Source: Lentisphaeria bacterium (lineage in GTDB: Bacteria > Verrucomicrobiota > Lentisphaeria > Victivallales > UBA1829). Taken from it: a DNA stretch of 26,963 nt. This document shows, one piece after another, positions 432-25,626 of this stretch. The position numbers and the translations under genes are program-made. The notes below the pieces were generated by a model that saw only the letters and a list, made by a program, of their open reading frames with translations, was not told the DNA's origin and ran no database searches. Where the stretch lies: positions 1 through 26,963 of the forward strand of contig JAGAPM010000108.1 in NCBI GenBank assembly GCA_017623265.1. The letters run 5' to 3'. The stretch's first letter is position 1. Each line of letters starts with the position of its first letter.

Positions 432-1637
432 ATGAGCGAAAGAATCGACAAGCTGACTTACCGGATCCGTCGCAAGTGGCGCGAACACAAGGAGAAAGAT
501 CCGAGCGGAAAAAGTTTCATCCGATACGTTTTCCGTTTTCTGTTTTACAAGATCCTGTTTTTTCCCCACCGGTTTTACAGCAAAGGCCTTGAGACCTGCA
601 GCCCGGATACGGTGAACATTGCAGTCTATCTCTCCGGCGGTCTCGGAGACTGCGTGGTGGGGATGCGTCTTCTGCAGCAGCTTTCCACACTTTATCCGGC
701 ATGCCGCTTCCATCTGTTCTATAAGACCCCGGCAGTGCTTTCCTGGGTGAGCGAAGCCGTTCCTGCAGTGGAAAGCGTGGAAAGCGCCGAACTTTATGAT
801 TACTTCAGCCGTCGGCTCGCCGATTGCGCCATACGTTTGAACACGTTTGTCAAATTCGATCTCACCCGGATCAATCTGCGCAAGATCAAACGGCTTGCCC
901 CCGGTTTTGCCGAGCGGATCAGTATCTCCCGGCAATGGGAAGGCATGAACCGTGTTTTTATCGATCATCATCCCACACTTGACGGGGCATACGCACGCAA
1001 CGCCGTTGCCCTCGGCTGGCAACGACAGGACGCCTTGAGCCGGCAGTTGGGGTTGCCCCCCTGCGCTCTCACACTCGCCCTGCCCTGCTCCGATACAAAA
1101 CGGGAAGAGGTCGCTGCCCGGTTCAAACGCTATGTCACCGTAAATACGGGCTTTGACCGTTTTTTCATCATGAGTACGGAAACGGCAACGAAATGTTATC
1201 CGGATGCGTATTGGTCCGGGCTGGTCCGTCTGCTCAAGGAAAATATGCCGGATCTGGGCGTGATCCAGGTCGGCAACGGCTGCAGCTACCACATTCCGGA
1301 AGCGGATCTGGATCTTTCGGGCAAGACCAGTCTTGCGGAATGTGCCGGACTTCTGAAGGGGAGTCTGCTGCATATTGATATTGAAGGCGGTCTGGTCCAT
1401 GTTTGTGCCAGCCTCGGCACCCGCTGTGCCGTTCTTTTCGGGCCGACTCCGCCCGCGTATTTCGGTTATCCGGATAACATCAATCTGCGGGACGAAAGCT
1501 GCAGTGAATGTTGGTGGGCAACCGAACGGTGGATGGAATGCTGTCCGAAAAATCATCCGGAGAATGTCTGCATGAAACGGCTGACCCCGGAACGGGTTTT
1601 TGCAGCGGTCCGGGCACATCTGCAGGAGCATCGGTAA
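432..1637 (+). CDS. Glycosyltransferase family 9 (heptosyltransferase-like) protein, 401 aa
   Basis: GGLGDCVV N-terminal motif; DLSGKTSLAECAGLL...HIDIEGGLVHVCASLGTRCAVLFGPT matches the GT9 C-terminal signature; C-terminal CSEC...C...CM Cys cluster typical of GT9. Confidence 0.85.
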   Translation: MSERIDKLTYRIRRKWREHKEKDPSGKSFIRYVFRFLFYKILFFPHRFYSKGLETCSPDTVNIAVYLSGGLGDCVVGMRLLQQLSTLYPACRFHLFYKTPAVLSWVSEAVPAVESVESAELYDYFSRRLADCAIRLNTFVKFDLTRINLRKIKRLAPGFAERISISRQWEGMNRVFIDHHPTLDGAYARNAVALGWQRQDALSRQLGLPPCALTLALPCSDTKREEVAARFKRYVTVNTGFDRFFIMSTETATKCYPDAYWSGLVRLLKENMPDLGVIQVGNGCSYHIPEADLDLSGKTSLAECAGLLKGSLLHIDIEGGLVHVCASLGTRCAVLFGPTPPAYFGYPDNINLRDESCSECWWATERWMECCPKNHPENVCMKRLTPERVFAAVRAHLQEHR

Positions 1638-1641
1638 GCGA

Positions 1642-2406
1642 ATGAAAAACTGGTTCAAAACGCAGGCGCTGTATCGTTCTCTTCTTGGCAAAGAGCTGAA
1701 AGCGAAATACAAAAACACCTTTCTCGGCTACGGCTGGAGCCTTCTGATGCCGCTGCTGCAGAGTGCCGTGTTTTTTGTGGTATTCAGCCTCTTTCTGCGC
1801 TTTCCGATCGAGAATTATTTTCTGTTTCTGACGATCGGGCTTGTGGTCTGGCAATTTTTCTCCAACAGCCTGACTCAAGGAGCGAATGTGCTTGTTGCCA
1901 ATGCAAATCTGATACGGAAGACCCCGGTTCCGCGGGAACTTTTTGTATCGGCAACGGTAGGTGCAGAACTGGTACATCTGCTGGTGACTCTGCCGGTGCT
2001 GCTTGTGTTGAGTCTTCTCTGCGACCGTCATCCGGGCTGGGAAACATTTTATGCGCTTCCTGCGGGGATTTTGAGTCTTGTTCTGTTCAGCCGGGGACTT
2101 GCGGGTATGGTTTCGATCCTGAATGCCTATTTCCGGGATCTGGAACGGATCCTGCAGATCCTTCTTCAGATCTGGTTTTATGTGACCCCGATTTTTTACC
2201 GTGCGGATCAGATTCCGGAAAGATTCCGTTTTCTGTTTCTTTTCAACCCGCTGTACTACCCGGTGGAGCTGTTCCGGTGCTGTTTTTATGAATCGGGACC
2301 GGAATGGAAAAAAGCGATTGCCGGCGTATTGTGCGGGTTGATCGTTTATCTTCTCGGCCGCTGTTTCTTCCGGCGCTTTGAACGGGATCTTGCGGAGGTG
2401 TTGTAA
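1642..2406 (+). CDS. wzm: ABC-2 polysaccharide export permease (Wzm/RfbA-like), 254 aa
   Basis: ELKAKYKNTFLGYGWSLLMPLL, NAYFRDLERILQ, FYVTPIFY and LNP-like (FNPLYY) motifs; about six hydrophobic segments. Start moved from 1600 to ATG 1642 (AGGAG at 1624-1628). Confidence 0.92.
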   Translation: MKNWFKTQALYRSLLGKELKAKYKNTFLGYGWSLLMPLLQSAVFFVVFSLFLRFPIENYFLFLTIGLVVWQFFSNSLTQGANVLVANANLIRKTPVPRELFVSATVGAELVHLLVTLPVLLVLSLLCDRHPGWETFYALPAGILSLVLFSRGLAGMVSILNAYFRDLERILQILLQIWFYVTPIFYRADQIPERFRFLFLFNPLYYPVELFRCCFYESGPEWKKAIAGVLCGLIVYLLGRCFFRRFERDLAEVL

Positions 2407-2407
2407 G

Positions 2408-3163
2408 ATGTCTGAACGAATTGCAGTTCTTCAGGTCAAAAACCTGCGCAAGGAATTCAAACGGGTCCGGTTGGATTACGGATTGAAAGATATCCTTCTT
2501 CACAGCATCAGCCACATCCGTCGCCTGCGTGAGCAGAAAAAGTTTATTGCCCTTGATAACATCAGTTTTGAGCTGTATCCGGGCGAAAGCATGGCGGTTC
2601 TCGGCAGAAACGGAGCGGGGAAAAGCACGCTTCTCTCGCTGCTTGCAGGGATCCTTTATCCGACCTCGGGTGAGATCATTTTGCGTGGCAGGACCGGTCT
2701 GATGCTGGAATTGGGTTCCGGTTTTGCTCACGATTTGAGCGGCAGAGAAAATATCATGCTGAACGGACTTCTTCTGGGAGCCGATCAAAAAGAACTGCAG
2801 CGGCGCATGGATGAGATCATTGATTTTTCAGGGATCGGCGATTTTATTGATGAGCCGCTCCGGACCTATTCGACCGGAATGCAAACACGGCTCGGTTTTG
2901 CCATTGCGGTCCATACCCGGCCGGATCTTCTGCTGATCGATGAAGTTCTTGCTGTAGGCGACAGCGAAGTCCGCCGGAAATGTCTTTCCAAGTTAAGCGA
3001 AATGAAACAGCAGGGGACCGCAGTTCTGCTTGTGACTCATGCGCTTGATGATGCTGAAAAATTCTGCGACCGTGCGATGTACATAGAGAACGGAGAAATC
3101 CGTTTTTCCGGACAGACAGCGGCAGTCATAACTGCGATTAAGGAAAATGCCTGTGAATACTGA
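2408..3163 (+). CDS. wzt: Polysaccharide export ABC ATPase (Wzt/RfbB-like), 251 aa, no C-terminal carbohydrate-binding domain
   Basis: Walker A GRNGAGKST, family signature PLRTYSTGMQTRLGFA, Walker B LLIDEVLAVGD, H-loop VTH. ATG 2408 follows the wzm stop by 1 nt. Confidence 0.92.
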   Translation: MSERIAVLQVKNLRKEFKRVRLDYGLKDILLHSISHIRRLREQKKFIALDNISFELYPGESMAVLGRNGAGKSTLLSLLAGILYPTSGEIILRGRTGLMLELGSGFAHDLSGRENIMLNGLLLGADQKELQRRMDEIIDFSGIGDFIDEPLRTYSTGMQTRLGFAIAVHTRPDLLLIDEVLAVGDSEVRRKCLSKLSEMKQQGTAVLLVTHALDDAEKFCDRAMYIENGEIRFSGQTAAVITAIKENACEY

Positions 3164-4253
3164 ACATAAAAAGACAGCCCTTCTTCACTACTGGCTGCAG
3201 CACATGCGCGGTGGTGAAATGGTGTTTGCCGAATTCTGCAAACGCTTTCCCGGGGCGGAAATTTTTACCCATACAGTGATAAAAGAAAATCTTTCCGATG
3301 CGATCACGGCTCATCCGATCCATGAGTCCCTGATTGCAAAAATGCCTTTCGGCAGAGAGTGCTGCCAGAGTTATCTGCCCCTGATGCCCTTTGCCCTGAA
3401 ACAATGGAATTTTGACGGCTACGATCTGCTCCTGAGCAGCGAATCCGGTCCGATCAAGGGGATCCGCAAACCGTCCGGCTGCCGGCATATCTGTTACTGT
3501 CATACCCCGATGCGGTATCTTTGGGACATGTATGATGAGTACTACGAGTCGGCATCACTGTTTACCCGGCTCGGCATGAGTCTGTTCAAAAAACGACTCC
3601 GGGATTATGACCGTCACTCGGCAGACTCGGTTGATACATTTCTGGCGAACTCACACTTTATTGCTGATCGGATCAAGCGGATCTATCAGCGGGAATCGAC
3701 AGTGCTTTATCCACCGGTGGATGCGGAATATTTCCAATCTGCGCCATCATCGGAGCGCACGCACTTTATCTATGTGGGAGCATTGGTGTGCTATAAACGA
3801 CCGGATCTTGCCGTAAAAGCCTTTGCAAAACATCCGGATCAGAAATTGATCATTGTGGGCAACGGCCCGATGAAACGGGAACTGCATAAACTTGCCACCC
3901 CGAATGTCACATTCATTCACAATGCCGATAAGGAGCAGATCCGTACTCTTTATGCCTCGGCAAAGGCATTGATCTTCCCGGGGATCGAAGACTTCGGGAT
4001 CGTTCCCGTGGAGGCACAGGCGGCGGGTTGTCCGGTTATCGCCATGAACAGGGGCGGGACATTGGAAACAGTGCTTGATCACAGGTCGGGTATTCTGATT
4101 GAAAAACAGGATGTGGAATCCATTCTGAACGGGATCGAAGAACTCTCCGGTCTGCATCTTCCGGAAACGGGAGTACGCGCGCATACGGCTCAATTTACGA
4201 CACAGGAATTTCATAAAAAACTGGATACTGTGCTGAATGACAACAGCCGGTAA
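3147..4253 (+). CDS. Glycosyltransferase family 4 (WbaZ-like putative mannosyltransferase), 368 aa
   Basis: ALLHYWL...GGE N-terminus, YCHTPMRYLWD, GT4 EX7E motif EDFGIVPVE(AQAAG), RGGTLETV. Overlaps wzt by 17 nt. Confidence 0.9.
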   Translation: MPVNTEHKKTALLHYWLQHMRGGEMVFAEFCKRFPGAEIFTHTVIKENLSDAITAHPIHESLIAKMPFGRECCQSYLPLMPFALKQWNFDGYDLLLSSESGPIKGIRKPSGCRHICYCHTPMRYLWDMYDEYYESASLFTRLGMSLFKKRLRDYDRHSADSVDTFLANSHFIADRIKRIYQRESTVLYPPVDAEYFQSAPSSERTHFIYVGALVCYKRPDLAVKAFAKHPDQKLIIVGNGPMKRELHKLATPNVTFIHNADKEQIRTLYASAKALIFPGIEDFGIVPVEAQAAGCPVIAMNRGGTLETVLDHRSGILIEKQDVESILNGIEELSGLHLPETGVRAHTAQFTTQEFHKKLDTVLNDNSR

Positions 4254-4302
4254 CCGCATTGTTTTTCTATTAGTATATTTAAAGATATTTTGCATTCCCC
4301 GT

Positions 4303-4391: not shown

Positions 4392-6935
4392 ATGAGCGAA
4401 ATAAACCTTACGGGGCTGCAATGCTTGAAAGCTGTGTTCTCCCAGGTGCGACGGGGAGTCAATTTTTCTGCACTGCTGACTCAAAAAGTCATGCAGGATT
4501 ATCAGGCGGATGACGTAGCAGTGCTGCTCAAACTCAGTGCCGACCACGGCTTGCGCCCTGAACAGGCGGAAGGACTTGATGTCTTTCAGTCTTACAGCGG
4601 GCCTTTTCTGGCGAAACTTTCTGCAGGGAACTGGGTTCTTGTTGCAAACAGCAAACAGCTGATCAGTTCCGAAACGATCAGTCTTTACGACCCCAAAACC
4701 GGCAAAGAAAGTATGATTTCTGTCCGTGCAGAACAGTTCAAGGAGCTGTTTTCCGGCAAGAGCATCATTTTTCACAATCTGGCACAGATTGATGCAAAAA
4801 AACAGACGCGTCTGACATCTTTCATAGCCATTGCACAACATCACAACACCCGGATCGACATCCGGGAGATCATGCACGAATATGCGGTTGGCGAAGAAGA
4901 GGTCAAAGAACGTCATCTCCGTCACATTGCCGCGGATTATAAATTCAAGAGCAAAGAAGTCAAGCTGGGGTGGAAGAAGCTGGAGAAGGCCGGTACCGTT
5001 CTGCCCTGTATCGCTGTCAAACGCAACGGGAAGTATGCCGTTCTCTGCGGCATGCGTACCAATGACGGCAAACAGGAAGCGGTCCTGATGGATCCGGAAA
5101 AGGACCACTCCGCAGACAACCGGTTCATTTTCCTGACGGAAGAGCAGTACCGAGAAGAGTACACCGGCAAACTGATCCTTCTGAAAAAGATCTTCAGCCT
5201 GACGGATGAAGAACAGCCCTTCTCTCTGCGCTGGTTCATTCCGGAATTTGTCAAGAACAAAGGAATCTTCGGCAAGATAGCCCTGATGGTGCTGATGCTG
5301 ACGATCTTTTCTCTCATCATTCCGCTGTTCTTCCAGATCGTGGTGGATAAGGTTCTGGTGAATCAGGCGTACAATACCCTGAACGTGTTGGGGATCGGGA
5401 TCCTGATCGCCGTTCTGTTCAATACGGTTGTCAGCTTTGCCCGCAGTTACATGCTGCTTTTTGCCGCAAACAAGATCGATATTTCCACGGCGACCAAAAC
5501 ATTCGCCCGTTTGATGAAACTGCCGGTGGATTTCTTTGACCGGGTCCCCTCCGGGGTCCTGCTCAAGCACATGCAGCAGACCGAAAAGATCCGGGGCTTC
5601 CTTTCCGGCAATCTGTTCTTTACCATTCTGGATCTGTGTGCCCTGTGTATTTTTATTCCGTTCCTGCTGTTTTACAGCATACCGCTGACGCTGATCGTGA
5701 TCGGCTTCTCCACATTGATGGCGCTGGTGGTGGCATGTTTGATCAAACCCTTCCAGAAACGTCTGGATGAACTGTATCAGGCGGAAGGGAAACGGCAAAG
5801 TATGCTGGTGGAAACGATCCACGGGATCAAGACTGTGAAATCACTGGCACTGGAACCGGTGGAAAAGAAGATCTGGGATGATTCCACGGCGTATGCCATC
5901 AAATCCCACTTCCGGGTGGGTAAGATCTCCATGACCGCCCAGAGCTTGAGCCAAATGCTGGAAATGATGATGATGATCTGCGTGATCTGGGTCGGAACCC
6001 TTCTGGTCAGTGACGGTGTCATGACCAGTGGCGCCCTCATTGCGTTTCAGATACTCTCCAACCGTGTGACCGGACCTCTGGTAAAACTGGTGGGGCTGAT
6101 CCACGAATACCAGCAGATTGCGCTTTCCGTGCGGATGCTGGGCGTGGTGATGAATGCCCCCATGGAACCGGCAGGCGGCGGAGTGCGCAACCCGATCCGC
6201 GGTCAGATCGACTTTGAAAATGTTTCGTTCCGGTACCGCCAGGATCTGCCGTTTGTGGTCAGAGACTTCAATCTTTCCATCAAGCCCGGCATGACGATCG
6301 GCTTTGTGGGACGGTCCGGATCCGGTAAGACCACGGTCACCAAGCTGCTTCAGGCATTGTACCCGGTAACGCAGGGGTTGGTGAAGATCGACGGAATCGA
6401 TATCCGGGAACTGGATAAGACCCACCTGCGCCGGAACATCGGTGTCGTACTTCAGGAGAACTATTTCTTCAGCGGTACGGTCCGGGAAAATATCAGTCTG
6501 CCGAAACAGAACGCCAGTCTGGAAGAGATCATTTACGCCGCAAAACTTGCCGGTGCAGATGAATTTGTGCAGAAACTGCCCCGGGGTTATGATACCATGC
6601 TGGAAGAAAATGCAGCGAACCTTTCCGGCGGACAGAAACAGCGTCTTGCCATCGCCCGCGCCCTGCTGACCAATCCGCCGATCCTGATTTTTGACGAGGC
6701 GACCAGCGCTCTCGACCCGGAAAGCGAAGAGGTGATCCGGCGGAATCTGAAAGCGATCGCCAGCGGCAGAACCGTATTGATCGTATCCCACCGGTTGAGC
6801 ATTGTGAGCCACGCAGATAAGATCGTGGTAATCGATAAAGGCGAGGAATCCGCCTCCGGCACCCATAAGGAACTGCTGGCAAAAGACGGGATCTACAAAG
6901 AATTCTGGACCCAGCAGATGAGAGGAGAAGACTGA
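4392..6935 (+). CDS. Type I secretion ABC transporter (HlyB/peptidase-domain-containing family), 847 aa, with two tandem C39-like domains
   Basis: FSLRWF...IFSLIIPLFFQIVVDKVL TM entry; Walker A GRSGSGKTT; signature LSGGQKQRLAIARAL; Walker B DEATSALD. The N-terminal ~265 aa are two C39-like folds. Start moved from 4290 to ATG 4392. Confidence 0.92.
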   Translation: MSEINLTGLQCLKAVFSQVRRGVNFSALLTQKVMQDYQADDVAVLLKLSADHGLRPEQAEGLDVFQSYSGPFLAKLSAGNWVLVANSKQLISSETISLYDPKTGKESMISVRAEQFKELFSGKSIIFHNLAQIDAKKQTRLTSFIAIAQHHNTRIDIREIMHEYAVGEEEVKERHLRHIAADYKFKSKEVKLGWKKLEKAGTVLPCIAVKRNGKYAVLCGMRTNDGKQEAVLMDPEKDHSADNRFIFLTEEQYREEYTGKLILLKKIFSLTDEEQPFSLRWFIPEFVKNKGIFGKIALMVLMLTIFSLIIPLFFQIVVDKVLVNQAYNTLNVLGIGILIAVLFNTVVSFARSYMLLFAANKIDISTATKTFARLMKLPVDFFDRVPSGVLLKHMQQTEKIRGFLSGNLFFTILDLCALCIFIPFLLFYSIPLTLIVIGFSTLMALVVACLIKPFQKRLDELYQAEGKRQSMLVETIHGIKTVKSLALEPVEKKIWDDSTAYAIKSHFRVGKISMTAQSLSQMLEMMMMICVIWVGTLLVSDGVMTSGALIAFQILSNRVTGPLVKLVGLIHEYQQIALSVRMLGVVMNAPMEPAGGGVRNPIRGQIDFENVSFRYRQDLPFVVRDFNLSIKPGMTIGFVGRSGSGKTTVTKLLQALYPVTQGLVKIDGIDIRELDKTHLRRNIGVVLQENYFFSGTVRENISLPKQNASLEEIIYAAKLAGADEFVQKLPRGYDTMLEENAANLSGGQKQRLAIARALLTNPPILIFDEATSALDPESEEVIRRNLKAIASGRTVLIVSHRLSIVSHADKIVVIDKGEESASGTHKELLAKDGIYKEFWTQQMRGED

Positions 6936-6938
6936 TAT

Positions 6939-8501
6939 ATGAAACACGAACAGGAAATACCCGCAAAGATCGTGGAATTTCAGTCCGATGCTCTGGAACT
7001 GAAAGACCAGAAACTGCCGTTCATCATCCGCTGCTGTGTGTGGATCCCCTTCATTGTCCTCGCCTGCGCCATCGGATGGGCATGCTGGGCGGAAGTGGAT
7101 GTGGTGATCCAGGCAAACGGCAGACTTGTCACCGATAAACAGACGATCGTGATGAAACCGCTGGAACGCTCCGTGATCAAAAGCGTCCATGTAAAGATCG
7201 GCGATGTTGTCAAGAAGGATGAGATCCTCTTTACATTTGATCCGACTTTCAATCAGGCGGAAGCCGAACGGCTGAAAAATGAACAGATCATGCTCGGTGC
7301 GGAACTTGCCCGTCTGGACGCAGAAGCGGAAGGAAGGGAATATACAGCAAACGGCAATCAGCATGAACGGGAACAGCTGGCGATCTTCCAGCAGAACAAG
7401 CGCTTTTATGAAGCAAAAATGACCTATTACCGGAACGAGATCGATATGCTGACCGCCGAACTGGCACGTCTGGATGCGGAAGCACAGGACGGCGACTACA
7501 AGGATCAGAAGACCCGGCACGAACAGGAACAGTGGGCGATCTTCCGGCAGAATAAAAACTTCTACCTCGCCAAAATCGACTATTTCTCCGAAGCCAACAA
7601 GCGGATCGACGCCACGGTCAAGAGCCGTGAAGAAACGCTGAACAAACAGCAGGAACGGCTTGCCCAGTTCCAGAAACTGGAAAAAGAACAGTCCCGCCTG
7701 TTTGAATCCACCAGCACGGCACTGCGTGATCTGATCGAGATCACTGTTTCCCGAATGGAGATCGAAGCAAATATCGACATTCTGAAGAACGAACTGTTGG
7801 AACTGCCCCACCGGACCGCATCCCTCAAGGCGGAAGAGGAAGCCTTCATTCAGGAATGGCGGAAGGACATCTCGGAAAAACGGGTGGAAGTCCGCCGGAA
7901 ATTGACCACCATGGAAAACGAGGAAAAAGCGTTCGTTCAGGAATGGATGAAAGGGATCTCGGAAAAACGGGTGGATGTCCGCAGACGCCTGACCGCCGTG
8001 CTGAAAGACTTTGATAAAGTCAAACAGCTGTTGGAATATGTGGAACTGCGTTCGCCCTGCGATGCCGTAGTCCATGAGATCGCCACATTCTCTCCCGGAT
8101 CAGCAGTGCAGGAGGCAGAAGCACTCATCACGCTGGTCCCGCTGGATGGCGAAACGGAAATCGAGTGCGAGATCCGCCCGCAGGACATCGGCAAGGTTCA
8201 GGTCGGTTCCAATGCCCGAATCAAAATCTCCGCATACCCGTTCCAGAAACACGGAACGCTGTCCGGTCAGGTGCGTATGATTTCCGAAAATACTCATCAG
8301 AAGACGGAAGGTCCCATGACGACCACTTATTACCGCGGCAGAATGGGCGTAACCGGCGAACTGAAAAATATTCCGGAAGACTTCCGTCTCATCCCCGGCA
8401 TGGAGGTACAGTGTGAGATCAAATGCGACAAACGGCGTGTGATCGAATATGTACTCTATCCGTTGATCAAGGGGCTGGATGAAGCCATCCGCGAACCGTA
8501 A
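6939..8501 (+). CDS. HlyD-family type I secretion membrane fusion protein, 520 aa, with internally duplicated helical hairpin
   Basis: IVEFQSDALEL N-terminus, single TM segment, lipoyl halves (GDVVKKDEILF; LRSPCDAVV), IRPQDIGKVQVG, AYPFQKHGTLSG, PGM and EYVLYPL C-terminal motifs; SD GAGGAG upstream. Confidence 0.93.
   Translation: MKHEQEIPAKIVEFQSDALELKDQKLPFIIRCCVWIPFIVLACAIGWACWAEVDVVIQANGRLVTDKQTIVMKPLERSVIKSVHVKIGDVVKKDEILFTFDPTFNQAEAERLKNEQIMLGAELARLDAEAEGREYTANGNQHEREQLAIFQQNKRFYEAKMTYYRNEIDMLTAELARLDAEAQDGDYKDQKTRHEQEQWAIFRQNKNFYLAKIDYFSEANKRIDATVKSREETLNKQQERLAQFQKLEKEQSRLFESTSTALRDLIEITVSRMEIEANIDILKNELLELPHRTASLKAEEEAFIQEWRKDISEKRVEVRRKLTTMENEEKAFVQEWMKGISEKRVDVRRRLTAVLKDFDKVKQLLEYVELRSPCDAVVHEIATFSPGSAVQEAEALITLVPLDGETEIECEIRPQDIGKVQVGSNARIKISAYPFQKHGTLSGQVRMISENTHQKTEGPMTTTYYRGRMGVTGELKNIPEDFRLIPGMEVQCEIKCDKRRVIEYVLYPLIKGLDEAIREP
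7299..7610 (+). repeat. Tandem in-frame 156-nt (52-aa) duplication in the ascending arm of the HlyD hairpin
   Basis: AELARLDAEA...HEREQLAIFQQNKRFYEAK (from 7299) versus AELARLDAEA...HEQEQWAIFRQNKNFYLAK (from 7455): 26/52 aa identical by hand alignment. Confidence 0.9.
7833..8006 (+). repeat. Tandem in-frame 87-nt (29-aa) duplication in the descending arm of the HlyD hairpin
   Basis: EEEAFIQEWRKDISEKRVEVRRKLT versus EEKAFVQEWMKGISEKRVDVRRRLT: 19/29 aa identical, with a shared 20-nt exact match ATCTCGGAAAAACGGGTGGA. Confidence 0.92.
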
Positions 8502-23664: not shown

Positions 23665-25626
23665 TTACAGTTCCACGGGGATGGTGATAAAGTCGAGGGC
23701 GGGGACCTCTGCCATTCCGCATAAGATCTTGCCGTTCATACGGATGGACCATTCGCCATCCTGCGTTTCTTCCGTCAGGTTGGCAAGAACGATCAAACCC
23801 TTATTGCCCTTCCAGTAAAGGGACATACCGACTTTATCGCTGTCCGTCCGGACAATACCTTCACCGGGAGCGGTATGATGTTCGTATTTCGTGAACTCCG
23901 CCAGATCTTTGGCGTGATCGTTGTAAAGATCGAACGTGGATTGGGGGCAACCAACATCCACGCACAGCGTGGCGTGATGCAGGAGCGTAACCAGCGCCAG
24001 TTTGCGGAGCTGCACCGGAGTTGCGCCGGGGAGCATGACGCAGATGGAACGGGGGGCAATATTCAGGAAGTGTACATGAGGCGTAAACATTTCCGGGAAG
24101 ATGTCGAAATATTCCGTCTCTTCGGTCAGGATCATATCGCCCATATTTTCCAGCGCCAGACTGGGGACGTTGGTCAGGTGGAGATAGAGTTTTCCCTTGT
24201 CCCCTGCGAGCGCGCGGCTCCATTCGATGAACTCCAGAAGTTTATCGTTGTCCCAGTGCCGTTTACCGTGGTTGTGTTCGGGGTTGATACATTCCAGCCC
24301 CATACACCAGTCAAAGTACAGCCCGTTGAATGCGTGGTTGTCCATCACGACCTGAATGGATTTTTTCCGGACCTTAAACCAGTCGCTTTCGAGACACATC
24401 TGAATCCCGAAAAGGCTGGTTCCGAAGAAGGTTTCCATACAGGCTTCCCCTTCCACGACCCGGCGGGTACTGGGGGGACCGAACTTTTCAAAATCCGGCG
24501 CCTCGGGATGATATTCCTTGACGGAGAAATAGGGGACCACCGTAATGCCGTTTTTATTGCAGTTTTAAATGACGGCATACATATTTTTCATCTCGTCTGC
24601 GGGGTACGGGGGATAGTCTGCATAACTCCAGAAGATGCCGTTTGCATAGAAGTCGCCGTCGTTGTGCAGACGCAGCATGCTGACTTTGTTCTTCTTGCAC
24701 GCTTTGAGGTCGGCGGCAGTGGGCCAGCGTTCTTCAAAGGGCTTACTGCTGCGGAGCAGCCCGCCCGCCAGATCCAGCGGCAGGATGTTCTTCTTGACAA
24801 AGGGCAGCGCCAGACGGTAGGTAAACGTGTACGTTCCTTTCTTGACAATGTTCCCGGCGCGGGGGGAATCCAGCGGCGCAAAGACCGCTTCATAACGCCA
24901 CGGATCACGGGCTTCGCAAACAGATCCCTGCGCCAGACCGGGGAAAGAATTTCCCAGATTGTCCCATGCGCCGAGATCGTCACCCATACTCATTTCCAAC
25001 GCTTCCAGTCCGTTCTTTAAGAAGGTAACGGAAAGGGGCAGATAGCGGGAGCGATACGCCGGCAGGTCACTGCGGCTCTTGCCGTGAACCAGATCGATCC
25101 ACCAGCAGGGATTCTGCAGTTCCACCGCCCACGAAGCCTGTGAACAGGGACGGACTGCCACCCGGTCCATATCATCCCGCACGCCCAGCGTACCGATCCG
25201 GATATGTCCCAGATCCATATCTTTGGTCAGCTTGACCTTGACCGTGTGGCTTGCTGCGCCGTCCGGGTGAAAGAGGACCGTATGTTTGACAGAAGCAGAA
25301 GGGAGTGCTTTGCCGTCTTTATCATAGAGTTTCGAGCTGTATTCCAGTTTTACAAATCCATCTTCAACTTCTTCACAGGCAAAGGAATCTGCTTTTCCAA
25401 ATGCAGTCTCAAAGTGATGATACTGACGCCACCCGCCCCGGACCCACGGACAAAGCGCTGTGGACTGTGCCTGAAGCAGGATATTGGTATTGGTGCCGTT
25501 CTTGACATAGGCGCCGGTCAGTTCACCGCCTTTTGCAGGATCGTGTTCCCAGCGGACAAATTTGTTTTCGATCACGGCAATGCCGTTTTTCTTCATCTTG
25601 ACGGTAAAAGGTGCTAATTCAGCCAT
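23665..25626 (-). pseudogene. Putative glycoside-hydrolase-like protein (beta-supersandwich plus TIM-barrel, family unassigned) interrupted by one in-frame TAA at 24565-24567
   Basis: ORFs 24565-25626 and 23665-24540 are in the same frame and joined by 8 sense codons: ...EMKNMYAVI*NCNKNGITVVPYFSVKEYH...; barrel motifs RLHNDG, PYFS, GLYFDW. SD GAAGGA before ATG 25626; none evident before GTG 24540. Confidence 0.75.

Follow-up and report, generated by a model that had tools for sequence, protein, structure and literature searches.

An HlyD-family adaptor gene and its two tandem duplications

A machine that spans the two membranes of a bacterium has to match the width of its periplasm, and only the outlines are known of how the length of such machines is set and evolves. 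Here we describe a gene for such a machine in a 26,963-nucleotide (nt) stretch of DNA from a Lentisphaeria bacterium (positions 1 to 26,963 of contig JAGAPM010000108.1, assembly GCA_017623265.1; hereafter the window). The gene (positions 6939 to 8501; this and all other window features given with coordinates below are on the + strand) encodes a 520-amino acid (aa) periplasmic adaptor, or membrane fusion protein, of the HlyD type I secretion family. It starts 3 nt past the stop of the gene for its HlyB-type ABC transporter partner (4392 to 6935), which encodes 847 aa from an ATG at 4392 in a reading frame that is open from a TTG at 4290. Two separate tandem duplications, both in frame, have probably made the hairpin of this adaptor one tier longer.

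The adaptor scores 267.1 bits against NCBIfam TIGR01843 (cut-off 208.65), with the match split into three stretches because the duplications interrupt the profile, and it matches Pfam Biotin_lipoyl_2, HlyD_D23 and HlyD_3. Pfam, secondary structure and fold matches together give a layout in which a lipoyl domain is split by a long alpha-helical hairpin and followed by a beta-barrel, with no membrane-proximal domain. In the AlphaFold2 model about 27 low-confidence residues, corresponding to a short cytoplasmic N-terminus, precede a single N-terminal transmembrane helix (7020 to 7088, aa 28-50) that lies in a hydrophobic stretch. The family-invariant residues Q237, E239 and R240 are kept in helix alpha2 and the tip is unchanged. 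Judged by these matches and by the model, the protein is an HlyD-family type I secretion adaptor. E. coli HlyD (PDB 5C21/5C22; HlyB-HlyD complex 8DCK/7SGR) belongs to the same TIGR01843 family and shares the N-terminal tail, the one transmembrane helix, the lipoyl domain, the three-helix hairpin, the beta-barrel and the lack of a membrane-proximal domain; its gene likewise adjoins an HlyB-type ABC gene, and the window protein matches chain C of 8DCK with an E-value of 6.7e-24. The best fold match of the predicted model is Aquifex aeolicus EmrA (PDB 4TKO; Z 16.9), likewise without a membrane-proximal domain, followed by the type I secretion adaptor LipC of Serratia marcescens (PDB 5NEN; Z 14.5), which unlike the window protein has the standard single-tier length, and by E. 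coli HlyD (Z 13.6).

Within the hairpin, unit A (7299 to 7454, aa 121-172) runs from the end of helix alpha1 across a loop of 9 residues into the next helix, of which it takes in the first 32 residues, and is followed directly by its copy A' (7455 to 7610, aa 173-224), which comprises the end of an extra helix (residues 141-182), a 10-residue loop and the start of alpha2. Beyond the tip, unit B (7830 to 7916, aa 298-326) and its copy B' (7917 to 8003, aa 327-355) both lie inside helix alpha3. When the protein was compared with itself in a BLOSUM62 self-diagonal scan (25-aa window, 100 shuffles), two offsets stood out, 29 (score 102) and 52 (score 83); the shuffle maxima averaged 29.9 (standard deviation 3.4) and the highest was 41. 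A and A' are identical at 26 of 52 aa and 95 of 156 nt (61%), B and B' at 19 of 29 aa and 62 of 87 nt (71%), with a longest exact run of 20 nt. An earlier note on this DNA had described two tandem duplications flanking the tip, of 52 and 29 aa, and every figure in that description was reproduced. The note's further calculation that removing one copy of each unit gives 439 aa (520-52-29) has a counterpart in nature: the syntenic orthologue P0008 has exactly 439 aa.

The window comes from a fragmented metagenome-assembled genome (2.0 Mb in 354 contigs, 72.8% complete), a setting in which a falsely repeated segment or a wrong frame could be mistaken for a duplication. The divergence between copies speaks strongly against this, since an assembler could neither collapse nor falsely repeat units as diverged as A and A' or B and B'. 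Furthermore, the gene has an open reading frame and shows selection on its protein (see below), and independent assemblies carry both units. The same-genus reference genome G003 (97% complete) has a 520-aa adaptor of the same architecture with 94% identity, and the 520-aa form makes up two 90%-identity clusters of 49 and 47 members (about 96) on dozens of contigs, some of whose members have been deposited at NCBI under generic 'HlyD family ... adaptor' names. Contigs from other studies cover all or most of the gene without gaps, among them a 16.8-kb contig that spans the whole gene with 22 substitutions. Joints that skip a unit were found in none of the contigs of four runs from four studies, a result that does not address minor variants because contigs drop rare ones. 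As the earlier note had anticipated, an artefact of assembly or annotation is thus ruled out, and we give it practically no weight.

The helical domain is unusually long among its relatives. Helical-domain length, counted as the residues between the two conserved lipoyl-domain prolines that anchor the hairpin, was compared across 262 aligned relatives of at least 400 aa and was 189-193 aa in 238 of them (91%). In the clade of the window gene it is 218 aa where only B' is present and 270-271 aa where both units are, and the longest helical domain outside the clade has 216 aa; that of E. coli HlyD has roughly 206 aa by an approximate HMMER alignment, against 270 here. The length of other large members of the family (516-617 aa) comes from cytoplasmic extensions at the N-terminus and not from the hairpin, and a recognisable tandem repeat in the helical domain was absent from all 150 family representatives. 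The coiled-coil domains of HlyD, LipC, EmrA and SiiD have been described as similar in length (bioRxiv 10.1101/2020.01.25.919720), and the EmrA hairpin, at 127 Å with helices of 84 and 80 residues, has been termed exceptionally long (PMC4158417). Adaptor hairpins are reported to gain or lose length when heptads are inserted into or deleted from both helices (Symmons et al. 2015, PMC4446572), and full-text searches of the literature on tandem duplication and hairpin length in adaptors returned only general statements. Lengthening by matched changes in both arms is therefore already known in principle, and the present case is not a different kind of system and does not reveal a new function. What is particular to it is the three-helix HlyD-type hairpin, the unequal size of the units (52 and 29 aa), the 29-residue period and the survival of ancestral-like and mismatched states in near relatives.

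Predicted structure and register of the hairpin

The AlphaFold2 monomer of the 520-aa protein has a mean predicted local distance difference test score (pLDDT) of 84.7, with values of 92-94 throughout the helical domain. The ascending arm is predicted to consist of helix alpha1 (7245 to 7331, aa 103-131), which leaves the lipoyl domain, a loop (132-140), the extra helix (141-182), a second loop (183-192) and helix alpha2 (7515 to 7709, aa 193-257), which runs up to the tip. After a one-residue break there, the descending arm is predicted as a single uninterrupted helix, alpha3 (7713 to 8036, aa 259-366). At 108 residues this helix would measure about 160 Å, against about 120 Å for the 79 residues left without B', a predicted difference of about 43 Å. 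These predictions lend support in silico to the proposals of the earlier note that A is a helix-linker-helix unit and B a single helix, that together they add one tier in register, and that the gain in reach is about 4 nm. HlyD's own hairpin, which is built of three helices, reportedly measures 115 Å, close to the length predicted without B'.

The model also offers an account of why units of such different length could match. Summed over the ascending arm the helices have 136 residues, against 108 in the descending arm (an excess of 28), whereas the base form has 94 against 79 (an excess of 15). By these residue counts, each helix-loop-helix splice would overlap its neighbouring helices by about 14 residues, and the net rise contributed by A' would be about 28-29 residues, matching that of B'. 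The arms would thus stay in register, and the units would be unequal because the ascending one copies the helix-loop-helix splice. The hydrophobic period of the whole descending helix is 3.575, at which 29 residues make about 8 turns, so that the face of the helix is nearly preserved. A period of 3.625 obtained for B and B' together was set aside as partly circular, being a harmonic of the 29-residue repeat.

The 468-aa orthologues, which have B' and lack A', provide a natural comparison. There the model shows a hairpin of base length (helix 141-205, tip, helix 210-275), and B' (residues 275-305) is predicted as a low-confidence bulge, with pLDDT 33-48 and residues 276-293 non-helical. Coverage of A' and B' by the alignment is equally thin in the two runs, so that the contrast between the models reflects whether the partner unit is present or absent. 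The matched insertions (+52 aa ascending, +29 aa descending) are thus predicted to be confidently helical only together, with B' joining the longer hairpin when A' is present and the two units depending on each other.

The bulge also raises the question of whether the extra segments extend the hairpin at all, or instead loop out or form a side bundle, for example as a docking site for another periplasmic component. The ascending arm of the adaptor family already contains a loop and a helix overlap, which would suit such an arrangement. In the 520-aa model, however, B' is part of the uninterrupted, high-confidence 108-residue helix and the new ascending helix has a pLDDT above 90, and residues 100-367 superpose on straight two-helix hairpins (213 of 213 aligned for the chemoreceptor 3g67, 230 aligned for the Smc coiled coil 5xg2), which indicates a helical domain that is extended and not folded back. 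A looped-out arrangement, which the earlier note had also regarded as the outcome that would count against it, is not what the 520-aa model shows, and we hold it to be very unlikely.

A lengthened hairpin of this kind can be set beside those of known systems. Relative to E. coli HlyD, the window protein has one additional helix-loop unit in its ascending arm and a descending helix longer by 29 residues. EmrA, whose partner is an MFS pump, has a plain two-helix coiled coil with 11 heptads per helix, whereas here the ascending arm contains two splice loops and the predicted length is about 160 Å. With the heptad rule of Symmons et al. 2015 (PMC4446572) the window gene shares a matched change on both arms, and a MacA-like adaptor of the same lineage, with +21 aa in each arm, is a textbook case of that rule. 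The window gene differs from the rule in that its units are unequal and their 29-residue period is not a multiple of 7, and in that the ancestral and mismatched states survive in close relatives.

Length classes, recombination and selection

All source-named homologues of the adaptor are from Lentisphaerae/Victivallales, and the closest of them come in three lengths, the differences between which are exactly the repeat units. The 439-aa orthologue (P0008 and two cluster mates) has neither A' nor B', the 468-aa orthologues (P0006 and P0007) have B' and lack A', and the 520- to 521-aa forms (the window, P0003, P0004, P0005 and G003) have both. All three are syntenic, with the ABC gene upstream and genes for a flavin reductase, a Mur ligase and YchF downstream. 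More widely, the base-length adaptors of Lentisphaerae/Victivallales (437-445 aa; among them P0008, P0012 and P0075) are orthologous or near-orthologous to the window gene, have the same 850-aa ABC partner with two C39-like domains and, without A' and B', a helical domain of 189-193 aa; P0008 has the same neighbourhood as the window gene, with the flavin reductase downstream. A search for orthologues with other numbers of tiers, which the earlier note had proposed, thus yielded this series; no form with three tiers was present among 569 homologues, the 150 family representatives and the cluster members, and no form with A' only was seen in these sets. The forms seen are compatible with either order of the two original duplications.

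In a maximum-likelihood tree from which the repeat columns were left out, the 439-aa form is the sister of all duplicated forms (support 86/95) and the two 468-aa forms are nested beside the 520-aa P0005 (support 100/100). In DNA sequence, the P0005 gene shares 97.2% identity with the 468-aa gene and 84.5% with the window. The nesting and these identities indicate that the A duplication is older than the split between the window and P0005 lineages and that the 468-aa form lost A' secondarily. Informative sites place the crossover of this loss in codons ~121-128, in the 5' part of the repeat. In the P0005 gene (L003:3143-3454) A and A' are 74% identical in nt overall and nearly identical over their first ~90 nt, where they are diverged in the window, which points to gene conversion between the copies. 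The 468-aa form thus bears the signature of unequal recombination between direct repeats that removed A' secondarily, after gene conversion, and copy number is still being altered by recombination. The clade of 439-, 468- and 520-aa forms is separated from the other Lentisphaerae adaptors by a very long stem (0.91 changes per site), and the adaptor of the same-genus genome G004 falls on a different branch of the tree; the locus may have been replaced, or may be fast-evolving, within the genus.

The ratio of nonsynonymous to synonymous substitution rates (dN/dS) was computed among the window, G003 and L003. It ranged from 0.03 to 0.08 for A, from 0.03 to 0.31 for A', from 0.02 to 0.16 for B and from 0 to 0.28 for B', compared to 0.03-0.25 for the rest of the helical domain; the top value for A' is inflated because of the gene conversion in L003. 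For the four units overall dN/dS is 0.02-0.36 at dS 0.2-2.3, with synonymous divergence of ~0.5-1. By this measure purifying selection acts on each of the four units as it does on the remainder of the helical domain, and the substitution rates indicate that the extra tier, fixed in the 520-aa form, has been maintained as protein for a long time.

Overall, one gene neighbourhood in closely related gut bacteria holds a clean series of adaptors with no extra unit, one unmatched unit and both. If the hairpin is indeed lengthened as proposed, two tandem duplications that compensate for each other can add a whole tier to a three-helix hairpin of the HlyD type, and register is kept only if the ascending-arm unit copies the helix-loop-helix splice. 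The members of the series are ready-made constructs for tests of the length tolerance of type I secretion, which is also used in protein production.

Envelope partners, alternatives and neighbouring genes

On the reading that we prefer, the system would consist of the HlyB-like ABC transporter, the HlyD-like adaptor and a TolC-like outer-membrane factor encoded elsewhere. B' would add 29 residues (~8 turns, ~43 Å) to the descending helix with its face kept, and A', as a copy of the native splice from the end of alpha1 through the loop to the start of alpha2, would add a new 42-residue helix and a 10-residue loop to the ascending arm, giving a hairpin of ~160 Å instead of ~120 Å. By analogy with HlyD and MacA, six copies of the adaptor may form a hexameric periplasmic tube, here a longer one, that would dock on the outer-membrane factor with its unchanged tip.

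Several observations weigh against this reading. In the 120-row alignment behind the AlphaFold2 monomer only 7 rows cover A' and/or B', and all lengths are DSSP helix residue counts from a monomer prediction, converted at 1.5 Å per residue as calibrated on EmrA. At the predicted tip (residue 258), a relaxed regular expression for the RLS/RLT motif through which such adaptors bind TolC (RxxxLxxxxxxS/T; present in HlyD as RLT, PMC3391258) found no match in residues 225-282, and the strict RLT motif of HlyD is likewise not found here; because the motif has been reported as not universal in the family (PMC4446572), this does not decide family membership. The 468-aa form, with its unmatched arms, persists as an intact gene on two contigs, so that register is not strictly required for survival of the gene, and the existence of the 439-aa orthologue P0008, ~85% identical in aligned columns and from similar samples, means that a longer reach is not obviously needed. 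Finally, neither of the two OEP-family genes of G003 has a compensating core indel relative to relatives with base-length adaptors. The comparison with the cognate TolC suggested by the earlier note therefore gave no compensating change in either candidate gene, and in the window's own assembly (72.8% complete) a search for the OEP family gave no match. One of the two OEP-family outer-membrane lipoproteins, at L030 (G003:C9:183500-187500), ends in a low-complexity tail rich in Ala, Pro and Lys, and the length of this tail varies between genomes (L030, L031 and L032), from ~60 aa in G003 through ~80 in G002 to ~140 in G004.

The unchanged outer-membrane factors would also suit the view that the lengthening, though real, is functionally neutral or merely tolerated, a product of slippage or unequal crossing-over in a repetitive coiled coil in which the second unit was kept only to repair a packing defect caused by the first, with the machine taking up the added 4 nm by bending or by interpenetrating more deeply with the OEP. 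In favour of this view, 439 aa suffice in close relatives, recombination continues to change copy number, L003 shows gene conversion between A and A', and two other adaptors in the same genome are unchanged. Against neutrality, purifying selection on the extra units is as strong as on the rest of the hairpin at dS ~0.5-1, the 520-aa form has been sampled far more often than the others of its clade (~96 cluster members against 3 and 2), and matched segments have been added to both arms of a second adaptor in the lineage as well. On balance we consider it unlikely that the lengthening is neutral or merely tolerated.

That second adaptor is MacA-like and its gene is followed by one for a MacB-like ATPase (G003:C15, L039:657-2198:+; in the window's own genome, G000:C194, L043:983-2524:+). 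Compared to the same-genus genomes G004, G002 and G001 it has +21 aa, three tandem heptads, in each arm. The lineage of G000 and G003 has thus lengthened two adaptors on both arms where same-genus relatives have lengthened neither, from which one might propose that the bridged distance, or the point at which the OEP is met relative to the cell wall, has changed in the species. We regard such a change as quite unlikely. G000 and G003 are one lineage, so that the co-occurrence of two lengthened adaptors counts once, and two other adaptors (505 and 475 aa) align colinearly in G003 and in its congener G004, which counts against a wider periplasm; for a 384-aa RND-type adaptor no clear orthologue (at most 36% identity) was present among the loci fetched from G004 and G002. 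The evidence on a wider periplasm or longer channel, which the earlier note had suggested, is accordingly mixed, with the OEPs unchanged, one other adaptor lengthened and two not. If such a change did occur, envelope dimensions in uncultured bacteria could be read from the number of adaptor tiers, used as a genomic ruler, and the 439/468/520-aa series would amount to a natural experiment in the length-matching of trans-envelope machines. In G000 the MacA-like gene is split by an in-frame TAA (L043:1679-1681) where G003 has GAA (Glu), and a single in-frame TAA in a GH-like gene of the window (24541-24580) had been noted earlier; both could be sequencing errors, strain-level pseudogenes or something systematic.

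The ABC partner itself is built of two N-terminal C39-like domains followed by the transmembrane domain and the ATPase. Pfam matches it to ABC_membrane, ABC_tran and, at aa 180-300, Peptidase_C39, and TIGR01846 is its best family even though the score of 648.8 bits (aa 177-877) is under the cut-off of 725.55. The second, more N-terminal C39-like domain (4392 to 4910; aa 35-175 of the frame from 4290), which looks C39-like by atlas features with a high score, is without a Pfam or NCBIfam match, and the self-alignment of the two domains is weak (score 52 against a shuffle mean of 27 and standard deviation of 5, with one shuffle reaching 54). The earlier note had pointed to this domain duplication beside the adaptor; the second domain is indeed present, but a link to the hairpin duplication was rejected, as orthologues of the partner have 847-851 aa and those beside base-length adaptors have 850-851 aa too. 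Judged by this distribution, the tandem C39-like domains are an older trait, shared by the whole Lentisphaerae family and not connected with the duplication in the hairpin.

Among animal gut or faecal metagenomes, the window DNA occurs in 20 runs belonging to 10 studies. No cargo gene for the type I secretion system was identified. Directly upstream of the ABC gene and on the same strand (432 to 4253) are genes for a GT9 glycosyltransferase, a Wzm/Wzt-like pair of ABC-2 permease and ATPase, and a GT4 glycosyltransferase, and at a relative's locus (L028) the equivalent position holds GT2 and methyltransferase genes; the secretion genes thus regularly adjoin genes for glycan export.

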